This document shows positions 1,557-53,926 of a stretch of 64,000 bases of DNA, piece by piece. The stretch is from the NCBI RefSeq assembly GCF_024521635.1, contig NW_026250426.1, forward strand, positions 62,001 to 126,000, read 5' to 3'. The position numbers and the translations under genes are program-made. This stretch comes from Tricharina praecox. Its lineage: Eukaryota. Numbering within the stretch: the stretch's first letter is position 1; each line of letters begins with the position of its first letter. Below the pieces are notes generated by a model. It had not been told where the DNA came from and did no database searches. It was given only the letters and a program-made list of their open reading frames with translations.

Positions 1557-2546
1557 CTATTCCTCCATGAGATCCGCCGAAGGTCCCTCCCTCAGCACCT
1601 TCTCCAACCTCGCAATCTCCTCCAAGCTTTTCGCGGCCCTGATCTTGTCTTCGATCTTCTTCTTTTCGGCCGCCGTCAACCTGACCGCATACTCCTTGTT
1701 TCCGCTTCCTGACGATTCGCCCAAGTCGAATGTGCGCGACTTGATGCCCATGATCTGTTGCGCTGGTTAGCTCAAAGCTTCGCCTGTGGATAGCTGCGAG
1801 TGGGTGTTCCATACCTTTGACGCAAGCGGTGATGGCTCCTTCTCGGTTCCAAATAGCTCCTCGGCGCGCTTCCGCTCGACATCCTTCACCTTCTGGTAAT
1901 CGAGAAATCTAACAGTCGGACACTTCCATATCACCCAGTGCCTGTAATGCTGGATCCGCAGTTCGATTAGCCCCATCGCCAATCGCCAATCCCCGATCAT
2001 TCACAAGACGTGGGGCCCTTACGTCTTTCCTCGTCACCGGATTCTCCAACAGAGACAAGTGTACAAGCCTCCTGAACTTGCTCAACGGCTCCAGATCGCC
2101 CAGTTCGGAGAGGTTGTTCGCCGTCAGGATCAACACCGTGAGATTTGGTATCGACTTCACGAGCGTCGGCTGGATGACGGATATTCGGTTTCTGGCGAGC
2201 AGCAGAGTATGTAGTCGCTCAGACAGCGGGAAGTTTCCCAGCTGCTGGATATCGTTGTCGGTGAAATCTATCGCATCTTGGGGCTTCAACCAAAAAAACG
2301 AAACAATATGTCAATCGGGTCAATCCATAGAGGTTTGGAGTGGGGAGTACGCACCCCCGCAACACCAAGATTCTCAATCGCGGGAATCTTGTGGCCTTCA
2401 AGAATGTGTATATGTTCAATATAGCTCATAGATCAAAAGTGTAGTACCTGCTCTTTGGGAAACGCACCTCTGAGATCCAGCTCTCTATCGTTGATGGGGT
2501 TAAGGAAACTCGGCGTCGCCGCAAGAATCTCACTCGTCAATCTCAT
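1557..2546 (-). CDS. LEA1: U2 snRNP protein A' (leucine-rich repeat), 5 exons
   Basis: MRLTSEILAATPSFLNPINDRELDLRG / HKIPAIENLGVAG / PQDAIDFTDNDIQQLGNFP...LSLLENPVTRK / HYRHWVIWKCPTVRFLDYQKVK / IMGIKSRTF...*; canonical GT-AG introns. Confidence 0.95.
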
Positions 2547-6778: not shown

Positions 6779-7624
6779 TTTTGGATGGTAGGTGCAGTTA
6801 AATAGCTGAGTTCCGGGTCCGAAGAGGTTCTCCGAGCTTTTAAGTTCATACCATACTCCAACCGAGTACATGTGACCACTACATCATTCAACTTTAGAGT
6901 GAAATCAGTCGCCACTCATGGGAGTTTGGTGCACTCAAGCATGATTTCCATAAAAACCCCGATGTTTCTTCTGGTAAAAGAACTTCACATAAACATCAGA
7001 TCAGGAATCTAAATCCATATGGTGGTAGGTATTGCATAACCTGTGCCTTTTCTACTCCACGGATTTCACATCTGCTACCTGCTGCTGGCTGGCTTGAAAT
7101 TGGAACCGCAAAAAGATGGCCTTTCTTGGCCGCAGGCACCATATTAGTCGTTAAATTACGGTTTCTGACTAGAAAACAAGGCGAAGACTATCCGCACCTA
7201 ACCGAAGTACCAGGTGTAGACTACCGAGTAATATGTAGCGCCGGATACAGATGTTAGAGATATGTAACCCGAGCAGGCAGTAGAGTAGCGAACGTCCCCG
7301 CTTGATGGCGACCGCCATCCAACTGACAGTGCCTCGCGCCTCGGGCCGCCTAGGGTGGTACCCTCCCTTGCTGATTCGAGGATATAGGTAGTTCATTTGA
7401 TACGCCATAGGCTTCTGCTTCCACGGCTTTGCGGGAAGCTTTTGGCCCTGGAAACAGCACCGGGCGATGACCTGCGAATACTGAGGACAAGAGTCGAGTG
7501 ATCCATTAATTTCAGTGATGATTGTTTCGACTGGCTTAGTTATAATTGGCAGCCTCCATGAGCTTTAGAATTCTAAGTACAATATAGGCACGGAACAGAA
7601 TTGATATCCACGGCACACTCGCGT

Positions 7625-8885
7625 CTAAAACTCTAAATCCACCTTCGTGGCCTTCCCATGGCCATGGCCATGCCCTCCCGCTCCCACCGCCGCCCCAGGC
7701 CCAGCCTCCTCCTCATCCTCATCCGCCGGCGGTAACGAATACGCCATGATCTCAAACCTCCTCCTAGTGACCAAAAACGCCAAATCCTCGCCCGCACCGA
7801 GTGCGGCACCGACACCACCACCTTTCTCCCCAAGAACGGGAAGCTTCCACAGCTTCACCAGTCCTTGAGGCTCCTCCTGCTTCCCTTGCGCCTTTGATGC
7901 TGTGCGACGCGGCAAGGGAAGGAGCTCTATCACCCCGTCCGAGAGAATCTCAGCCCACCGGATCAGTGCCGTGGCCCGTGGGTACAACTCGGTAGGAAGC
8001 GATATCATCACGGTTAGTTGCCGCGGGTACTCGCGAAGCAGCGCGCGGAGGGAGTGTAGGAATTGGAGAAGGTGCTGTGGGGCGCAGGCATGCGGTGAAT
8101 ACAAGGCAGGGTTAAGGAGAGAAGGAATGAGGACGCGGTGGGGGGTTGTGGAGGGGGTGCTGGCGAGGTGTGTTGAGAGCTGAGCGAGGAGTGTGGAGTA
8201 GGGGGCGGTAGAGGCTGTGGGAGCAGGGAGGAACTTGAGGGATGCGCTGGGTGGGATTGCCAGCCGCTTTGTGAGATCGAAGGTGTGGCAGAACGGGGTG
8301 GATGTGGTAGATGCGACGGGCGTGCGCGTCGGTGTGTGGGATTGCGCTGTGCAGATAAATCAGCTCTCACCCTCCCCCAGCCGATTGTGTCCAGAGTATA
8401 CCACGACTGCCACCAATCCCACTTCCAAACTCTCCCAACCGCTCGTACCGCCAGGCAATCTTCATTCTCTCTGAGCCCCCCGAATCCTTCCGCTTCCCGC
8501 TGCCCTCAGCATCACCCACTAGGGCGGGAAGGTCCCGCACCCACTGCTCTCCAAAACCCACGACAGTGACTGCGTGTCCTTGCACAATGCCCTCCGCCGC
8601 ATAGTACCGTAGCAGTGCGCCGCCGTAGTCAGTTGTTCCTGGCTCTTCTATGAGGAACGAGCAGCCAAGGGGAAGCCCGGCGTGGCCAGCAAGGAGGGAG
8701 TCGAGGCTTGGTGTGCCCGTTGAAGTGGTGGGTTGGCCATTTATGGGTGACGGACGGATACCCGGGACTGGTGGGTCAGGTTTTTGTGCGGGCGGTGGAG
8801 AGGGGGAAGAGGAGGCTGTAGAAGCGGCGGTGCCTGGCGGACCGCGCGCGTTGACTATTACGTTGCGCTTGCGGAAGCTGGCCAT
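7625..8885 (-). CDS. ELP4: Elongator complex subunit 4 (PAXNEB), 2 exons
   Basis: GIRPSPINGQPTTSTGTPSLDSLLAGHAGLPLG, IEEPGTTDYGGALLRYYAAEG, MKIAWRYERLG, FCHTFDLTKRL, C-terminal ...DLEF*; intron at about 8348-8400. Confidence 0.95.
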
Positions 8886-9290
8886 CGTGGATGGGTGTAT
8901 CGTGGTTAAGTTGACGTAGGTGACGCGCGAGGTTGGTGGGGTGGTGGGGTTGAGGCTCTGGTTCAAGAGTTTGACTATGACGCCATAGCGCAGGGCGCCG
9001 TAATTTGCACCCATACCCCTATGTACGGTGGAAGAAGTTTGAGACGTGACAGCCTTGGTCCGCCGCTGAGCCACAGTGTTCAGCCCTATATACGGATTTT
9101 CGAAACTATATGTTGTCCTCACACGTCGCTATCACGTCCGGAAAATCACAAGATCTCACTCATTCGCTAACAAGGGGCACGTCGTTGGATCGGAAAACGT
9201 CGCTGAATCGAGGTTTCCAACAATCGGAGAATGGCGTCGAATCGACAGCGTCTTTGGACATCAATCCGACTAATTTTTGCGCACCCTACT

Positions 9291-40143: not shown

Positions 40144-41921
40144 ATGGCGCTGAGTGCGATACTCCCGACACCCAGCCATGCGCTGGCATTGCTACTGCTC
40201 GCGCTGGGAGGATATATTGTGCGCCAGCGGTACTTCCACCCGCTCAGCAGATTCCCGGGACCTTGTGAGCTTCCCTCTCGCCATACTCGACAGCAGAACT
40301 AACCCATCCACAGTCCTCGCCAGCCTTACAGACCTCTGGAAATCCTATAGCGTGTACACGGGCAAATGCCACACGAACGACTTGGCTCGACACAAGCGGT
40401 ACGGTCCGGTATACCGGGACGGCCCCAATAGCTTGTCGTTTGCGGATCCCAGATGTCTCCCCGCGATCTACGGAGCTAGGGGGAACGAAGAGTTCAGGAA
40501 GGCAAGCTGGTATAATGTCTTCCCGCAGCCTCCAGGTGGCGCCGAGGTCATGCTGGTGATTAGGGATCCAGAGGAACATAGAATCGTAAAGAAGCGGATG
40601 AAGCCGTTGGTGGGTGCTGACTGTGGGGTTTCGTGGGGCAAAGGGACTTGCTGATGATATGAGCAGCTTACCGTGCAGAAACTTTTGCCGTATGAGGAGG
40701 CTATTGACGAGGCTGTTACCGACTGGGTCAATAAACTGGGGAAGTTGGGGACCGTCGATCTAGGCCTGTGGACCCAGTATCTTACCCTGGACGTCAGTGA
40801 GTTTCCCGTGGGTTGTCCATCGGTGTCCTGTCAACTGACACGACCAGGCGAGCTTGTGTCATATGGAAGCCGCAAAGGATTCATTGAACGAGGAGAGGAT
40901 GTGGATGATTATATCAAGACCATAGACGTGAGTCCAAGCTCATTACGGTGAGGCTGGAGGCATAACTCACCCAACGCAGGCAGGTTTCGTGGCAATAGGA
41001 ATCACCGCTCCCTCGACGCTCCTGATCAACCTAACCCAGAAACTCACGGCTCTGCTGGCCCTTCGCAAGCCGGACACCGAATATAAGGGCGGTTTCGTGG
41101 ACATGAACAATGTACGAGCCTTCCTCTGACGCCGAAAAACTGCTGCTAACAAACTCCCGCAGCGAGCACAAGCTGCTGTTTCCAGTATCATCTCAGGCGC
41201 CGCCATTGATAATACATCAACCCTCGTCCACGGTCTCATGTCAACGCTCCGAGACGTTGACCCAGTATACGCGCGCAGCTACGCCATCAACGAGATGATG
41301 TCGGTGCACATCGCGGCCTCGCACAGCACCTCGATCGGGCTCACCGCCTCCCTCTACAACGTTCTCAAGCACCCGTCAGTGCACCGCAAGCTGCTCGTGG
41401 AGATAACCTCCAGCTCTCTCTCCTCGCCCGTCAAGTTCCAAGAAGCCCTGGCCATGCCCTACCTCAACGCCGTAATCCGCGAATCCCTCCGCCTCTACCC
41501 AGCGTTCATCTGCCCATGGCCGCGCATCGTCGCCGACAACGGCACAGGCGGGTACGAGATCATCCCCGGCGTATTCGTGCCCGCAGGCACCACCGTCGGC
41601 GTCCCAGCGTACGTCTCCAACCGCAACGTTGACGCCTTCGGTCCCGACGCCGAGGAGTTCCGGCCCGAGCGCTGGCTGCCGCTCGACGGCGAGCGCGCAA
41701 AGGATATGGATAATATGATGTTCACGTTTGGATTCGCCAATAGCAGCAGGATGTGTGTTGGCAAGAATCTCGCGCTCATGGAGATCGCGAAGGGCGTTGT
41801 TGAGGTGCTGAGGAGGTTTGATGCCGAACTGGTGGATAGGGCGGTTACCCTGGAAATGCTGGATACCGCACATGTGCATTGCTCTGTCGAGCATTTGTTG
41901 GTTAGTTTGACGCCAAGATGA
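40144..41921 (+). CDS. Cytochrome P450 with atypical I-helix and heme loop, 6 exons
   Basis: N-terminal membrane anchor, FHPLSRFPGP, HKRYGPVYRDGPNSLSF, ExxR (IRESLR), FRPERWL, heme Cys in FGFANSSRMCVGKNLA; the exons join in frame. Confidence 0.93.
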
Positions 41922-42715: not shown

Positions 42716-42961
42716 CGATGGATATAGGAGGATATGGATCGATATGGCATTTATGGGCGGATATAGGAGGGTATGGATTGATATGGTATTTATGGATTGA
42801 TATGGTATTTATGGGCGGATATAGGAGGATATAGTTTGTGGGTGGACATGGGAGGATATGAATTGATATGGATTAATATGGGCGGATATGGGAAAATGCG
42901 GATTTATATGGCTGGGTATTTGAGGATACGGATTGATATGGACAGGCCGGGGCGGAAGGCA
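42716..42961 (+). repeat. Dispersed repeat copy A: GATATGG-rich minisatellite with a unique end GACAGGCCGGGGCGGAAGGCA
   Basis: ~38-bp unit GATATAGGAGGATATGGATTGATATGGTATTTATGGGCG; a reverse-complement match lies at 53696-53926. Confidence 0.85.
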
Positions 42962-43333
42962 GGGAAAGCCACATCCGGCCACTCAGTGAAAGTTGGGTTG
43001 GACAGTGTCTTGGTTGAAGAGAAGGAGCTGCATCGGGGTGGAGGTCACCACTTTTCCGAGTCACAACTCTGGATCGAGTAAGAAGTCATGATGATTACAC
43101 AAATTTTGAGCTACTGTATGACACGAGCTTCAACATTCCGTATGTACATCTGTATGTACATGTAACATGTGTATGTACGTGCCCCTCCGGACCTCCGGTA
43201 GATGCCAGACGATCCCAAAAACAAGCTTCAACAATCTACCAAGTATAAAGATAATCGAAATCCCACCGCAACGCCAAACCAAACCAAACCCAGTGCATTC
43301 TCATTCCCATTCCCATTACCATAACCATAATCA

Positions 43334-45518
43334 CTACCAAGAAAACGCCTCCGTATGCAAATATATCTGTGAATTCACCGTCAGCCTCATGCTCTATGCA
43401 GCAGTGGAAGTGGAAAACCTACACCCTGCGCCCCCGTCCCCTTATGCACAGCCCTCTCATCGCTAAGTCCCACGGCGGCCTCACGCGTGGCCTGTACCAA
43501 TCCGAGGGGACCACAGACGACGACCGCACTCTCGCCGCGAGCGCGCTCCAGCTCCTTCTGTATGAGATTCCTCACCATGGGCCGTCCGGCGAGGAAATTG
43601 ACCGACGGGGGGAGGGAGAGCGTGCGATGGACGGAGCTGGTGCTCGTCTGGGCACGGGAGAGCTTTGGCGGGCTCGAAGGTGGAGTGGTGGTGGTGCAGC
43701 AACAGCATGCGGAGGGGGAGATGGAGTCTTCATCTTCCACCACCGCTCTGCAGCAGCAGGTTCCGTTTGGCCCGCAGCTGGTTTGCTCCGCCTCCTCGAT
43801 CTGTGCGGCGTCCTTTTCTGTTCTCCCGTCGAGCTGGGTGTCCGACGACAACCGCGGCGTCGTCTTGGAGGATGTGGCGGAGGAGGAGCCATCAATCTCC
43901 GACGTCAACTCCAGGTCACAGGTCACATAGATGCTTGCTTCTATCTCGAGTCTGCGACCGGGATTGGGGGCCGAGGCGTTTGTGTTAAATACCGACTCGA
44001 GCGCTGCACCAAGCGCCTTTGAGAACCAACGGACTTGTCCACGACTCTTGACGACCCAGACAAAGCGAATGCGGCGAGTGACCAGCGGCTTGCCCAGCTC
44101 CCTCAGGCGAATGAGATCCCTCAGGAGCGGAATGCAGAAGCTCGCACCGGTGCTTCCGGCCAACAGGATGACGGAATCGAATTGCTCGAGCGGCCGGAGT
44201 CGTCCATACGGGCCGTCGAGGAAGACGGTTTTGCACTCGGAGGACTGCGGCGGGAGGCAGCAGGCGTGATTGTGAACCTTCCCAGTGCTTCCGGAGTGTG
44301 CGCGGACGACGAACTCGAGGACGCCGTCGGAGGGTAGTGAGGAGATGGTGAATGGGTGGGATTGCAGGGGAGCCAACGAGTGGCAAGAGAGGAATGCATG
44401 TTGGCCTGGGCGCCAGGTCATTGGCGGGTTTCGAATCGTGATGCGGGTTGTTCTGTCGGCCATTGGTGTGAACAGGGCTTTGCAGGCGAAGACGGAGGGG
44501 CGCTTGGTGGAAGATGACGCTGGCTTTGGGTGGAAGATAGACAAGTTGTGGTATGCGAGGAATCCCCAGCGCACCGTGCGATCGAAGGCCCATAGAGCTA
44601 CGGGAAACCACACGTACAACTGGGCTTCGACGGGAACATGCATCCACACGATGACCAAGAACCCGATCGCGCCGATCATATGATGCAGCACGAAGAGCTC
44701 ATATCTCCAACGTCTTAACGGTGCGACACTCGACACCATCAACCAGGCAAGAACAAGGAACGCGCCGAGCCCTCGTCGTGAGTGTATGTCAATCTCGAGC
44801 TTCCGGTCGATATAGTCGAAGCGCGCCCAGGACCGTAGGTAGTACGCCATATGCGTCAGCGCGGTGATGAACAGACACCTTGAAACAGACCGGTGCATCC
44901 AGTTCAGCCGCTCATAGGAGGTTCCGGTGAGGAACCCGACGATGTTGGCCTTCCCTGCCATCAAAAACACGAGCGGGAGCTGCGTGACCGTCATCCAGCC
45001 AGCGCGCACGCCAATCGTTTCGTACATCCGGCCGTTGTTCACATCGTACCCGAAGAAGACGATAGCAAGGAGCAACGTCAGGTTCGACGCCATCAGCCAG
45101 AGGTATCCGAAGGGCGGAAGGTGTGTGAGTCTTGGAAACCACGTCAGGATCTTCCCCCGCCATCCCTCCCTCCGTCGTATCAGCGGGATGGGATAATTCA
45201 CAAACTCCCTAGCGATAGCAGTGATGGTCGCAAACGTCTTCGAGAGTGCGTTCTTCGGCCTCGCAGGATCCCACTTTCCACTGACAACCTGCCGCATCCT
45301 GTCGCCACGCCATCAGCATCAGCATCCGCGCACCAACAAACACTCGCTCGCCGGACCACAAACCTAATCTTGAACTCAATGTGCTCCTTCAGATTGACCA
45401 GTGTAGCGATGGCAATGATTCCTCCCGCAAACATCCAGTACACCTCCGCCAGAAACGGGTCCTCCCGCACCGTGATTCCGCTGCTTCCACCTCCACCGCC
45501 GTGCCCCGCGTGGCTCAT
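43334..45518 (-). CDS. Ferric/cupric reductase transmembrane component (FRE family), 3 exons
   Basis: Heme His residues in LNWMHRSV...LTH and RYELFVLHH...WMH; FAD motif HPFTISS; NADPH motifs LDGPYG and LAGSTGASF; FVWVVK; VVVCGP; C-terminal IYLHTEAFSW*. Confidence 0.95.
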
Positions 45519-45731
45519 TTTTCCGGTATAGCTGCCGCTTCGATTCGGATTTTGATGTGGGATGAAATGGATCGGCTCGAGCTTCAGATGCCCATCCAGG
45601 TGCACGAAGTGAAGAAAGCAGGCACTTCGTCGAGTTGGGGGAGGTCTAGGTCCTAGTACTAGTAGCGGAACAACTCTTCAGTCGTCAGGCGTCGGTCGAG
45701 GCGAAAGCGTGGATGGATATGCTATATGCTG

Positions 45732-45907
45732 TGATCCTGCGTATGCTCGCCTCCTCGAGTACCGAATCCACGAGGTGATAAGCAAGAAGTAAGATGCAGA
45801 GTGCGTAGTGGGGTTCCCAGCTCCCGCAACAGATAACTATTCTGCGGTCTGTACCAATAACCAAATTCGGACCCGCCGATCCTTGCCGTTTCCGTAAAAC
45901 TTGCTCA
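45732..45907. promoter_or_regulatory. Candidate copper-responsive elements in the FRE/CTR divergent promoter
   Basis: TGATCCTGCGTATGCTC (45732-45748), GATAAGCAAG (45777-45786) and AACTTGCTCA (45898-45907); near-identical copies recur at 49284-49869. Confidence 0.45.
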
Positions 45908-46651
45908 CCGCCAGGGGGCGGTTGGTTCGTTAAGCTAACTGGGATGGGATGTGACCCTGGACTACAAGGTGCACTAACGAATCCCGACCTCAGAGGACGA
46001 GGAAAAAGATGTCGATGGATGGAGACCTTGCGAACGAGCGTCGAGCGAGCTCTCTGGATGTTCTGGGCAGGCTGAGGCGGATAGTGGAGTGTACTGTGGT
46101 ACCATACGCCTGTAGATGTGGCAAAGAACCTCGATATCAGGTCATAGGCAGGTAGACGGGCTGGCTGGATAGCCAATTCCGAAAACAAAAACAATCCGCT
46201 CACCTTCCCCTCCCCTCCCCACCTCCACCACCATCATAGCGGGGGGGGGGGGGCAAAAGTGAAGAGCAAGAATGAGAGAGATACGTAAATCTAACGCGTG
46301 CCCCCTCCCTCCACGCAGCTCGCCGATGCCGATGCCGATGCAAAAAAAGGAAGGAACGAACGAACGAACGAAAAAGAGCGGAAAAAGAATCGAGCCCAAC
46401 TCCACTATCCGGGTACGATACATAGAGCACCCACTCGATCGTTAGACGGACGACCACAACCATCCACCGCATCCGCCGCATCCATCCCATCCCACCCGGC
46501 CAGCCATAACTATCGATAGCACAGCATAGCACAGCACAGGTCCGATCATATCACATACGTCAACCTCCCATCCTCCCATCCCATCACCCGCACAGCAGCA
46601 GCAGCACTCCTCCTCCAACCCCCCCTCTCCCTCGAGCCCAACACCTAAACA

Positions 46652-47311
46652 ATGGCGGACTTCACGCAAAACACCTCTTCCGGCTCGAGCTCCAGCTCCA
46701 GCAGCACCTCCACCACCTCCTCCAGCAGCTCCGACAGCATGTCCGACAGCATGTCAATGACCATGTCCATGACGTTCATCACCTCGACCACGACGCCATT
46801 ATTCAGCACCTCGTGGACGCCGCGCACACTGGGGCAGTACGTTGGCGCGTGCATATTCCTGATTGTCCTCGCCTTCGTGTTCCGCTTCGTGCTGGCGTGG
46901 AAAGCGGTGCTTGAGCACCGGTGGGCAAGGAGGGAGGTGGACAGGAAGCCTGTCGTCGTGCTAGGGGACGGGGACGCGGGCGGGAGCGAGGATGAGCTGC
47001 CGAAAGAGGCGGGCGAGGGCGAGGGGGTGGGTCAGCCATCGGCTGAGAAGGTGCGGCCGGAGGGCTGGGCGGGAAGGCCCTGGAGGTTTGGTACGGAGCT
47101 GCCGAGAGCGGCGATGGCGGTCCTGAGCACGGGGTTGGGGTATCTCCTGTGAGTTTTTCTCCTCTCCCAATACGGCATCAGAGGCTAATAGGCGAAAAAT
47201 AGCATGTTGGCGGTGATGACGATGAATGTGGGATACTTCATGAGTGTGCTTGCCGGCGTGTTTGTCGGAGAGCTGGCTTGGGGGAGGTTCATGACTGGCT
47301 CGAGTCACTGA
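46652..47311 (+). CDS. Ctr-family copper transporter, 2 exons
   Basis: Met-rich ectodomain (SMSDSMSMTMSMTF), PLFSTSWTP...YVGACIFLIVLA, RPWRF, YLL|MLAVMTMNVGYF (MxxxM), GVFVG (GxxxG). Confidence 0.95.
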
Positions 47312-47924
47312 GGGAATGGACCATGGTGGGGTGCGGTGGGGTGGGGACTATTTGGTTTTGGGAATATCTATCTGCTTTTTTTCTCGGCGTTCGGTTGCTG
47401 CGTTTGGGATCCTGTCTTTGTTGCGCGGATACTTCGTAATTCACTACTTGGTTGTGGGATTTCTCATTCTCGTGCATTCGGGCGTGAGAGCGTGCGGATG
47501 GACCAGTGGGGAGTGGGATGTGATTGGACTCTGGATTTCGGACATGGCTTCAGACCGGAGTGTAGCTGCTTCAATGCTTCACTCATGCCTGCATCCTCCG
47601 CCATCTGACGTATTCCGTCCAGCGTCTTCCTTCCTCTCTTCCATGTATAGCACACTACGACAAGCTGAAGAACCAGTTCATGCGATGTACCACCCGTCTC
47701 ATTATGATTGATGGAACGCAACCCAACGCCGTAAAGCTCAAAGATACAAACTGCAGCAATCACCCACAACCCAATTCCAGAGAGAAAAAAACAACCGCTC
47801 AAGAAAGCAAGCAACACAGCCATGCGAAACATACACAATCGTAGTAGAGTTTCGACCCCCGCCCGCAACCTCGTCATCGTAATATCATGTACAACCAACC
47901 ATATGTATCATCCACCATCATCAT

Positions 47925-48579
47925 CTAGAGAAGCCAAGCAAGGAGACCGACAGCAACGGCTCCCCCAGAAAACTTGAGCGTGTTGCCGCCGCTGGTGCTG
48001 CTGCCAGAAGCGGCGGCAGCGTCGGAGGTGCCGGTGCTGGCGGCCTCGGCGGTAACGCCCGTACCGTTCGAACAGGTATCGACTCGGACACTGGCTGAGG
48101 TGAAGGTGATGTCGGCGCACTGTTCTCTCGCATCAGTCCTGTGCGTAAATACAGTTTGCGGGAGGGAAACATACGTTGTAGAGCCCACCACCGTCATGGC
48201 CCTGCTGGACGACCTGAATAGTAGCATTCTGGCCATCCGTGGCATTGACACTGCTCGGGACCTCGAGTTCGTTCCAGCAGAACGTTCCGAGTCCAACCTG
48301 GAGGAAGGTATCCTTGAGGACGATAGTGAAGTCGTCCTTGGTAGGGTTATTTCCGAGGGCGAGGTAGACAGCGGTGTTTGCCTCGTCGTGGCCGGCCTCG
48401 AAGCTGACGGCGCCGCCAGTGGTGGGCCAGCGCGTGCGGTTCGACGACGGCGTGTTCATTCCGCCGCACGGCGACGAGGACTGCGTCTCGCCGTTGTCGC
48501 CGCGGTCCGCCGGGTAGTTGAGCGTGAAGTGCGCGCTGGCCAGCGGCAGCAGCATGGCGAAGAGGGCGGTGGTACGCAT
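47925..48579 (-). CDS. GPI-anchored BIM1/X325-like (LPMO-like His-brace) copper-binding protein, 2 exons
   Basis: Signal peptide MRTTALFAMLLPLASA followed by His1 (HFTLNYPADRG), PCGG, second His in AGHDE, GLGTFCW, NATIQVV, GLYN|CADITF, Ser/Thr/Ala stalk and hydrophobic C-terminal GPI signal. Confidence 0.88.
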
Positions 48580-49283
48580 TTTGAGGGGATTGCTGGGGAT
48601 TTGCTTTTGCGGGGAGGGGAGGGAGGAGGAGGAGTGTGTGTGGTGTGCGAGGAGTGGAGTGGAAGAACGAATGGCACGAACGCAGTATAAAAGGGTCGTC
48701 ACTGCTACTCTTTTTTTTGGGAATCCATTACGACCTGCCTAAGCCATTTCGATGGCCCGTAGCGGACCGGCCCATTCCTGTAGTACCACCACCGCCTCCT
48801 CCACCACCACCATCAAGGAGCGTGCCGCCGGATGTTTGCGATGATCGGATCGCGGGGGAGGGGGGGGAGGTTGAGAGCTTTTGAGAGAGTTTACGATTCC
48901 AGACAAGTTTAGCGCCGAATACACCAGCCCCCGCCAATCACAGACCATCAAGGTTCCTGGGAAAAAGAAGCTTGCGTTTAAACTAGTTTTTGAGCACGTT
49001 CTGTGGGGGCCCGATTGGAACCGGTACCCCGGAAGGAGGTCTCGTCAAGCGTGGAAAGTGTGGCGGCGGCGGGAAGGAAAGTGAAGTGAAGGGGCTAAGG
49101 CAGGTCGGAGACAGCCGAGGAGATTCTTGTGCCCTGTGCCCTGTGAGTGATCGTCGGATACCTGTGACACCTTCGGGTCGAATGAGGTAGATTGAGAGAG
49201 AGAGACGACCATGTCTTTGAACTGGGACATCGGAGGAACTGTGTGCGCTACGTTTGAAAAGCAGGATCACGGGATCATACATA

Positions 49284-52586: not shown

Positions 52587-53695
52587 ACGCAGTGAATACA
52601 TTGGTAGGTACATACATGGAGGATGGGGTACATATAGACATATTATGCTTTTTATATGGCATGAATGCTGCCTGAAGATGGATATAAACTAAACGGATAT
52701 GCTTCACTCGAGCGCGCGGTATGATACAGCTTCTTGCGCTCGTGAATCATACAGACAGATGAGAGGCACGGCATGATGACTTACGGTACCCACTGGCGCT
52801 GTGAAATGCATCTATTGACCTGCTCAACCAACAGATCGACTTATTCTCAATCGCTCTCGTGGCTAAGAGACGATCCGATTCCCCATGGTGCTGGAATAGA
52901 AGCCAGCGAGCACTTCAGTAAGCTGCAACCACACTTACATGCACATACGCGTTAGACACTGGTTATTTCCGCGGAGATACTCGGCATTGCCATCACGGGG
53001 GGTTCCAGACTTCCGGTGGGTTCAATCAAGAAATCTACTCACCGTCGATTCCCGACTTTTGGGTGACGGGTCGACATAGTTATCGGTGGTTACTTTATAG
53101 CAATCGGTGTCGCCCCGCTCTACAAAACCGGGTCGAAGATACCTACTACCGGCTCTATATTAAATCTTGGTGACTCAGTCGGAACAGGCCTATTTAGGTA
53201 GGTAGATATCTGATAGTTGCAACTTGTTTTGGGGATCGTATGGTATTTACTGGAGGTGTATTGACATAGAGATGTGCATACGGAATGTTGAAGCTTGTAC
53301 AGTATATAGCTCCGAAGTTGTAACTTGTGTGATCATGACTTCTCCCTCGATCTCGAGTCGCGACTCGGGAAAACGATGGCCTCCACCCCAATGCAACTCC
53401 TTCTCTTCAACCAAGATCATTAAACGCTAGTTGATACACATATGCGGCCAGCCTCGTCACCCGCTTCATAGCGCAATCATCAATGAACACCTACAGCTCT
53501 ACTTGTGGTTCAGATTTCACTCCAACATCACATGATCACACCTATTCCACCAACACCGTGAGAACAATCACTACGAAGCCAAGATTACAACCGTCAAAGA
53601 GCTACCTATGCTAGTACACGGGATCCGGCTGGTAGTTTTTCGTGACCGAGGCATGTACAAGTACGGGGGGGTGTGAGAGAGAGAGAACATCAATT

Positions 53696-53926
53696 TGCCT
53701 TCCGCCCCGGGCTGTCGATATCAATCCATACCCTCCCATATCCACCTGTAAATACCATATCAATCCATATCCTCCTATATCCACCCATAAATACTATATC
53801 AATCTATATCTACCCATATCTGCCCATAAATACCATATCAATCCATATCCTCCCATATCAATCCATATCAATCCCATATCAATACATATCCACTCATATC
53901 AATCCATATCCTGCCATATTCCTGCC
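53696..53926 (-). repeat. Dispersed repeat copy B (inverted relative to 42716-42961)
   Basis: TGCCTTCCGCCCCGGGCTGTCGATATCAATCC followed by CCATATCAATCCATATCC-type units. Confidence 0.85.

Follow-up and report, generated by a model that had tools for sequence, protein, structure and literature searches.

Introduction

The closest described counterpart of the locus studied here, a three-gene group of the fungus Tricharina praecox, lies on chromosome 6 of Aspergillus fumigatus, where Afu6g02800 (a putative glycosylphosphatidylinositol (GPI)-anchored protein), Afu6g02810 (ctrA2) and Afu6g02820 (a metalloreductase) are adjacent (Sugui et al. 2008, PMC2481287). Expression of all three rose when the fungus was exposed to normal neutrophils, and the trio was deleted jointly (PMC2481287). 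The T. praecox group occupies positions 43334-48579 of a 64 kb stretch of DNA, hereafter the window, and consists of a FRE-family metalloreductase gene, a Ctr copper transporter gene and a BIM1/X325-like gene: the same three kinds of gene, adjacent and in the same order as in A. fumigatus. The consulted part of the 2008 report leaves the family of the GPI gene unnamed and reads the trio as linked to iron or oxidative stress (PMC2481287).

Pairs of reductase and transporter genes are also well described. In A. nidulans, AnfreC (reductase) and AnctrA (transporter) have a common Mac1 promoter, and the pairing was found in 110 of 127 fungi (PMC7705104). In Fusarium oxysporum, the cluster fre9/ctr3/FOXG_07771 is bound by Mac1 and induced without copper, and the entry for FOXG_07771 reads "SAM domain-containing protein" (PMC11563359). 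The supplements of that paper that were searched (12 of 17 files) hold no annotation of FOXG_07771, FOXG_02393 or FOXG_01130. Both reports resemble the window in having the FRE-CTR pair with Mac1 sites; in the portions consulted, neither names a BIM1-like third member. A first-pass annotation of the window had implied that the cluster was new, a suggestion that has to be given up in view of the adjacent, co-induced trio published for A. fumigatus and the wide occurrence of the pair.

The best-studied relative of the third gene product is Bim1/Cbi1 of Cryptococcus neoformans, a GPI-anchored X325 protein with a His brace that is induced by low copper and acts in copper uptake with Ctr1 (PMC7924993; PMC7529816). 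Structures are available for LaX325 of Laetisaria arvalis (6ibh, 6ibi and 6ibj). We know of no report of adjacent Bim1 and Ctr1 genes in Cryptococcus, and of no described genomic context for LaX325.

Since the core neighbourhood was already known, the window mostly adds an early-diverging Pezizomycete example and breadth to the trio. It newly contributes a family for the third gene, evidence of how widely the linkage extends and a common promoter element. In our literature search, which did not cover Garcia-Santamarina 2020 or Labourel 2020, we met no report that identifies the third member of such a cluster as X325/BIM1-like, nor any survey of its synteny. We argue that the trio is probably a co-regulated, Mac1-controlled module of T. 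praecox for high-affinity copper capture, reduction and import. This reading gives genomic support to a copper-uptake role of ascomycete X325/BIM1-like proteins, a role shown mainly in the basidiomycete Cryptococcus, and it offers a family and a likely function for the "GPI-anchored protein" encoded next to ctrA2 in A. fumigatus, which is uncharacterised. The common promoter element is a direct handle on co-regulation.

A reductase gene, a Ctr gene and a BIM1/X325-like gene are expressed as neighbours

T. praecox belongs to the Pyronemataceae (Pezizomycetes). We built gene models by translating the region in all frames and then inspecting GT..AG boundaries. The FRE-family metalloreductase gene lies on the minus strand at 43334-45518 (exons 45518-45364, 45298-43423 and 43366-43334; 687 aa). 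The Ctr gene follows on the plus strand at 46652-47311 (exons 46652-47148 and 47203-47311; 201 aa), so that the two are divergent, with 1133 nt from ATG to ATG; on these gene models their common promoter spans 45519-46651. The BIM1/X325-like gene is on the minus strand at 47925-48579 (exons 48579-48175 and 48119-47925; 199 aa), convergent with Ctr, and the two stop codons are 613 nt apart.

Transcript evidence came from assembled contigs of public sequencing runs. Contigs of runs X1 and X2, from two studies, precisely skip all four introns (43367-43422, 45299-45363, 47149-47202 and 48120-48174). Contigs that skip exactly the predicted introns must derive from RNA, and all three genes are thus expressed and spliced as modelled. 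These contigs speak to presence and do not rank levels or conditions. In X2, FRE contigs end near 45767, and Ctr contigs bearing adapter sequence end near 46622; a third run, the metatranscriptome X3, contributed only short, partly dissimilar pieces. The arrangement given by the first-pass annotation, a reductase gene with a divergent Ctr gene and a BIM1-like gene tail-to-tail with the latter, was confirmed to the exact bounds, with Pfam matches for all three products and the RNA-confirmed introns.

The deposited T. praecox models are shorter than ours at two places: the BIM1-like model P0001 has 166 aa and is without the Ser/Thr-rich linker, and the Ctr model P0129 has 189 aa and is without 12 loop residues. 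Both places are covered unbroken by RNA contigs, in Ctr exon 1 and BIM1-like exon 2, and the extra removals in P0129 and P0001 are unsupported. The longer models (201 aa for Ctr and 199 aa for the BIM1-like protein) therefore fit better than the deposited ones. Contigs of the two convergent genes, reaching 47754 for Ctr and 47725 for the BIM1-like gene, overlap by about 30 nt (47725-47754). The transcripts may accordingly overlap at their 3' ends, although contigs cannot fix transcript ends.

The reductase matches Ferric_reduct (PF01794, 4e-25), FAD_binding_8 (PF08022, 1e-17) and NAD_binding_6 (PF08030, 2e-18), and carries the motifs HPFT at residue 366, GPYG at 414 and CGP at 647. These domains and motifs are those of a FRE/NOX-type metalloreductase, to which we assign the predicted product. 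The transporter matches the Ctr family PF04145 with both exons (exon 1, 1.5e-21, 78 bits; exon 2, 1.2e-7, 32.8 bits). It has the Met-rich ectodomain and the MxxxM and GxxxG motifs that had been noted earlier: Met motifs at residues 30-40 near the N-terminus, MLAVM at 167-171 in transmembrane helix 2 and GVFVG at 184-188 in transmembrane helix 3.

The third gene encodes a predicted X325/BIM1-like His-brace protein

Exon 1 of the third gene alone scored 112.2 bits (E = 3.7e-32) with the Pfam family BIM1-like_dom (PF20238), whose curated cut-off is 27; its translation is 100% identical to an NCBI protein entered under T. praecox. A profile of 22 relatives, compared with the Protein Data Bank, matched LaX325 only (6ibh, 6ibi and 6ibj; E = 1.3e-24), and in that alignment His1 and His49 of the 6ibh chain, which form its His brace, fall on His17 and His64 of the window protein. 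Similarly, an AlphaFold2 model built from 49 sequences, with a mean predicted local distance difference test score of 90.2, returned LaX325 chains (6ibh and 6ibi) as the top 4 Foldseek hits, with template modelling scores of 0.74-0.77 and 30-32% identity. Catalytic lytic polysaccharide monooxygenases (LPMOs) came next, with E values of 2.7e-4 or worse. The window protein thus appears to have the fold and His-brace positions of LaX325, at 30-32% identity to this basidiomycete protein. The assignment of the third gene to the X325/BIM1-like family, as proposed in the first-pass annotation, holds on the Pfam match, the structural profile and a predicted LPMO-like beta-sandwich fold closest to LaX325.

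The protein was also said to be secreted with a histidine as its first mature residue. In agreement with this, a predicted signal peptide (...LPLASA) ends directly before His17, giving HFTLNYP as the mature start at the predicted cleavage site, and Ala16 and His17 are invariant among the 49 aligned sequences. His64 is invariant in alignments A1-A3 and at least 90% conserved in A5 (49 sequences). Towards its C-terminus the protein has a Ser/Thr/Ala/Gly-rich linker and a hydrophobic tail with a predicted GPI signal; the GPI anchor is putative, and Talaromyces relatives carry the name "GPI anchored protein".

In Bim1 and LaX325 the third copper ligand is an Asp on a Gly-rich loop (PMC7529816). 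The corresponding loop of the window protein reads GHDGGG (His128, Asp129), and its alignment to GGDGN of LaX325 is ambiguous; in other Pezizomycete sequences the residues here are GHT or GHS. Unlike the protein of the basidiomycete Cryptococcus, the window protein has a GHDGGG loop whose His128 is conserved among Pezizomycete sequences. It is a possibility, judged from these alignments, that His replaces the Asp ligand in Pezizomycetes. At residue 128, alignment A2 has His in 9 of 9 Pezizomycete sequences (GH[DTS]GGG) and Asp in 3 Lecanoromycete sequences (GDPxGG).

These matches bear on the A. fumigatus locus. Proteins of Talaromyces that bear the name "putative protein AFUA_6G02800" or "GPI anchored protein" match PF20238 and are 42-46% identical to the window protein. 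In Pseudogymnoascus destructans, VC83_07867 is BIM1-like protein 3 (PMC12113139), and its best Swiss-Prot match is AFUA_6G02800 (PMC5810475). Indirectly, by the names of relatives and the best Swiss-Prot match, Afu6g02800 would itself be BIM1-like.

Two further observations concern this protein. A complex prediction of a Ctr trimer with the BIM1-like domain gave scores of 0.00 and 0.00, with controls not run, and speaks neither for nor against binding. A close relative, P0061, is named "expression library immunization antigen 1", so that the BIM1-like family includes at least one protein whose annotation is that of a fungal vaccine antigen.

Linkage of the three genes is conserved while the flanks are not

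Synteny of the BIM1-like gene with FRE and CTR in relatives had been set beforehand as the refuting test of the annotation. We scanned metagenome contigs with the BIM1-like alignment A2, obtained 65 loci (numbered with the prefix L), searched them by tblastn with the three window proteins, and collapsed them at a nucleotide identity of at least 90% in the BIM1-like region into 39 clusters. Fifteen of the 39 were informative in that 3 kb or more of sequence was present on each side of the BIM1-like gene. A Ctr gene lay within 2 kb in 11 of these 15 and a FRE gene within 5 kb in 13, and both were found in 10; the refuting outcome, a lack of synteny in relatives, was clearly not obtained. Ctr was also present in 7 of the 24 clusters with shorter flanks, and in all 18 Ctr-bearing clusters the gap between Ctr and the BIM1-like gene was 391-1979 nt. 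By a rough, uncomputed expectation, a genome of tens of Mb with few Ctr genes would place one within 2 kb by chance in about 1/1000 cases or less.

The trio occurs in three internal arrangements. That of the window, with BIM1-like and Ctr convergent and FRE divergent from Ctr (BIM> <CTR FRE>), was found in L001-L007 and on the short contigs L022 and L032. In a second group (L009, L012, L014-L018, L020, L021, L023, L038-L040 and L042), FRE and Ctr are divergent and the BIM1-like gene follows Ctr in tandem (<FRE CTR> BIM>). A third (L055, L057 and L061) has FRE divergent from the BIM1-like gene, with Ctr behind the latter (<FRE BIM> CTR>). The Talaromyces-like locus L038 thus has the trio with its BIM1-like gene in tandem after Ctr, whereas the window gene is convergent with Ctr. 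Labelled approximately by the nearest named relative, full trios are closest to Pyronemataceae, Tuber, Leotiomycete, Lecanoromycete and Talaromyces proteins, and a Ctr-BIM pair on a truncated contig is nearest, by an equally approximate label, to Dothideomycete proteins. In a quick tree, the window protein groups with the Talaromyces proteins named after AFUA_6G02800, and Chaetothyriales-type proteins fall in another group.

By contrast, the flanks are not conserved. Of the 127 open reading frames (ORFs) that flank the trio in the window, a BTB-domain gene is the sole one to turn up again in its vicinity, in L004, L005 and L007. It lies beyond FRE in those loci and beyond the BIM1-like gene in the window, which indicates that the trio was inverted as a block. 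Loci L001-L003 have the most window-like BIM1-like proteins (70-71% identity), yet no flank ORF in common with the window.

A Mac1-type element is enriched in both promoters

Neither promoter matches the canonical copper-response element (CuRE) strings TGTGCTCA and TTTGCKCR, and these are not over-represented in the window. Given this result, we used a relaxed, data-derived motif, AACNTGCTCA, obtained by surveying k-mers in the divergent promoters and in the sequence upstream of BIM1-like genes, which yielded TGCTCA with a fixed 5' context. The 64 kb window has 3 matches against 0.48 expected, and at least 3 were found in 0 of 100 shuffles. One, AACTTGCTCA at 45898-45907 (plus strand), lies in the FRE-Ctr promoter and also fits DHNTGCTCA; another, AACGTGCTCA at 48991-49000 (minus strand), lies 412 nt upstream of the BIM1-like ATG. 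The third copy, at 2075-2084, falls within a long, putative leucine-rich ORF (1909-2310, minus strand), and we took it to be a chance match.

We next counted AACNTGCTCA across 39 representative loci (326.5 kb), taking 700 nt as the upstream region. Its density was 0.78/kb upstream of BIM1-like genes (18 matches) and 0.50/kb in FRE-Ctr spacers (6), compared with 0.045/kb elsewhere (13), an enrichment of 11- to 17-fold at trio promoters. Of the 31 clusters in which 400 nt or more of upstream sequence was available, 13 (Ctr-less loci included) carry the strict motif, in every case at a distance of 175-445 nt from the start of the BIM1-like gene. At positions -4 to -2, promoter copies of TGCTCA have A in 81%, A in 68% and C in 72%; copies elsewhere are unbiased.

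Chromatin immunoprecipitation sequencing of F. oxysporum Mac1 gave the consensus 5'-DHNTGCTCANNN-3' (DHNTGCTCA), in a paper that also quotes the yeast consensus TTTGCTCA (PMC11563359), and the A. fumigatus MacA motif is TGTGCTCA (PMC6514546). The window elements fit the F. oxysporum, yeast and A. fumigatus descriptions of Mac1/MacA sites, and we regard them as candidate sites.

Copper-response elements were also seen in loci without Ctr. L048, L053 and L060 carry a divergent FRE-BIM1-like pair (BIM1-like gene at about 10001; FRE at about 7200-9200, minus strand), nearest to Chaetothyriales. Two copies of the element lie in the spacer of the pair, and L048 and L053 have more copies near a second FRE gene. 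Such pairs resemble fre10/FOXG_02393, a pair bound by Mac1 in F. oxysporum and with an uncharacterised second gene (PMC11563359).

The trio as a probable copper-uptake module

The view that copper capture, reduction and import are physically linked here as one module is supported by the conserved microsynteny and the common Mac1-type element. Its observed part comprises the gene identities, their transcription and splicing, the linkage and the motif. On this basis, the module would work as follows. Under copper limitation a Mac1-type activator, suggested by the motif, would bind the AAAC(T)TGCTCA elements in the FRE-Ctr and BIM1-like promoters. The GPI-anchored BIM1-like protein, by homology to LaX325 and Bim1, would bind Cu(II) at the cell surface, probably in a His brace formed by the N-terminal His17 and His64, together with a ligand on the GHDGGG loop. 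FRE, if it has the function of its family, would reduce Cu(II) to Cu(I), and a Ctr trimer would be expected to import Cu(I) via its Met-rich ectodomain and MxxxM pore.

Several points weigh against this reading. The strict motif is missing upstream of the BIM1-like gene in 18 of the 31 clusters, and AACNTGCTCA was derived from the same loci on which its enrichment was counted. Ctr is missing in 4 of the 15 informative clusters (three divergent FRE-BIM pairs closest to Chaetothyriales proteins and one pair of BIM1-like paralogues), and for these four clusters, as well as for L031, a local search of the fetched flanks with a Ctr hidden Markov model confirms its absence there. The CTR and BIM1-like genes of P. 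destructans have distant locus tags (PMC12113139), so linkage is not obligatory. Runs X1 and X2 have no copper condition attached, and for the A. fumigatus triple deletant the consulted part of the report describes oxidant and low-iron tests, not low copper (PMC2481287). Finally, roles in the cell wall and in development have likewise been attributed to X325 proteins.

The roles just named lead to the alternative that we take most seriously among three, although we consider it improbable: that the BIM1-like protein serves mainly cell-wall integrity, morphogenesis or copper buffering in the wall and does not feed Ctr. One paper groups the homologue from P. destructans with cell-wall remodelling, mushrooms regulate their X325 genes during development, and Cbi1/Bim1 has been linked to cell-wall changes (PMC9258870). 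Against this, the gene lies consistently beside Ctr and FRE and has a Mac1-type element; moreover, Bim1 was reported in copper uptake with Ctr1 (PMC7924993), and mutagenesis of its copper ligands was reported to affect import (PMC7529816). Somewhat less probable still is that adjacency reflects inherited gene order, with the BIM1-like gene merely standing beside a FRE-CTR pair to which it is not functionally coupled. The loss of linkage in some lineages, seen in the informative clusters without Ctr and in the dispersed locus tags of P. destructans, speaks in favour of this explanation. Against it, the trio is conserved while its flanks are not, the genes stay 0.4-2 kb apart through three internal arrangements, the same enriched element is found in both promoters, and the A. 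fumigatus trio is co-induced (PMC2481287).

The remaining alternative, a module for reductive iron uptake or the oxidative-stress response instead of copper uptake, was discussed by Sugui 2008 (PMC2481287) and draws on the ability of FRE enzymes to reduce Fe(III). We consider it very unlikely: the neighbour is a Ctr gene and not an Ftr1/Fet3 pair, the A. fumigatus triple deletant was normal on low iron (PMC2481287), and the promoter element matches the copper regulator Mac1. Weighed against all three, a copper capture-reduction-import module is the explanation that we prefer.

A poly-Cys insertion in the reductase and other features of the locus

Translation of 43696-43779 (minus strand) gives a poly-Cys motif, SCGPNGTCCCRAVVEDEDSISPSACCCC, which sits in an inserted, low-complexity stretch of some 80 aa within the NADPH-binding domain of the reductase. 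The pattern CCC-x3-[VIL]-x-DED...C(x)C(x)C is kept in the Ctr-linked reductases of L001, L004, L005, L009, L014, L038, L040 and L042, which represent several classes, and is poor or absent in those of the Ctr-less loci L048 and L060. Among the top 150 FRE representatives, the half-motif was found, by successive rank group, in 9/20, 6/20, 2/40 and 8/70. The motif may be a cytosolic site that binds or senses Cu(I), and the insertion is a new lead on the coupling of reduction and import.

Candida PRA1-ZRT1 is a linked pair of a zinc scavenger and a transporter. We put forward, tentatively and with more doubt than confidence, the broader proposal that the trio could be the copper counterpart of PRA1-ZRT1: an ancient Mac1-driven unit dating from the base of the Pezizomycotina, kept together by selection and moving or inverting as a block, in which the poly-Cys motif of FRE (CCC-x3-V-x-DED...CxCxC) may sense or receive imported Cu(I) and so feed back on reduction.

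Two inverted-repeat arms, at 42717-43157 and 53264-53919 (about 450-650 nt, 70-91% identity, including a 39-nt minisatellite), bracket a 10.1 kb segment that contains the trio and the BTB-domain gene. We found no further copy of the arms elsewhere in the window, nor in the loci fetched. Arms of this kind could favour inversion, and Tuber-like loci have the trio in inverted orientation with respect to the BTB gene.

A cytochrome P450 fragment lies at 41130-41918 (plus strand), 1.4 kb from the 3' end of FRE. We considered it as a cluster member and rejected it: P450s near FRE or BIM1-like genes in L048, L053 and L058 are only 29-32% identical to it, a likeness at family level only, and its position is accordingly judged to be probably chance.

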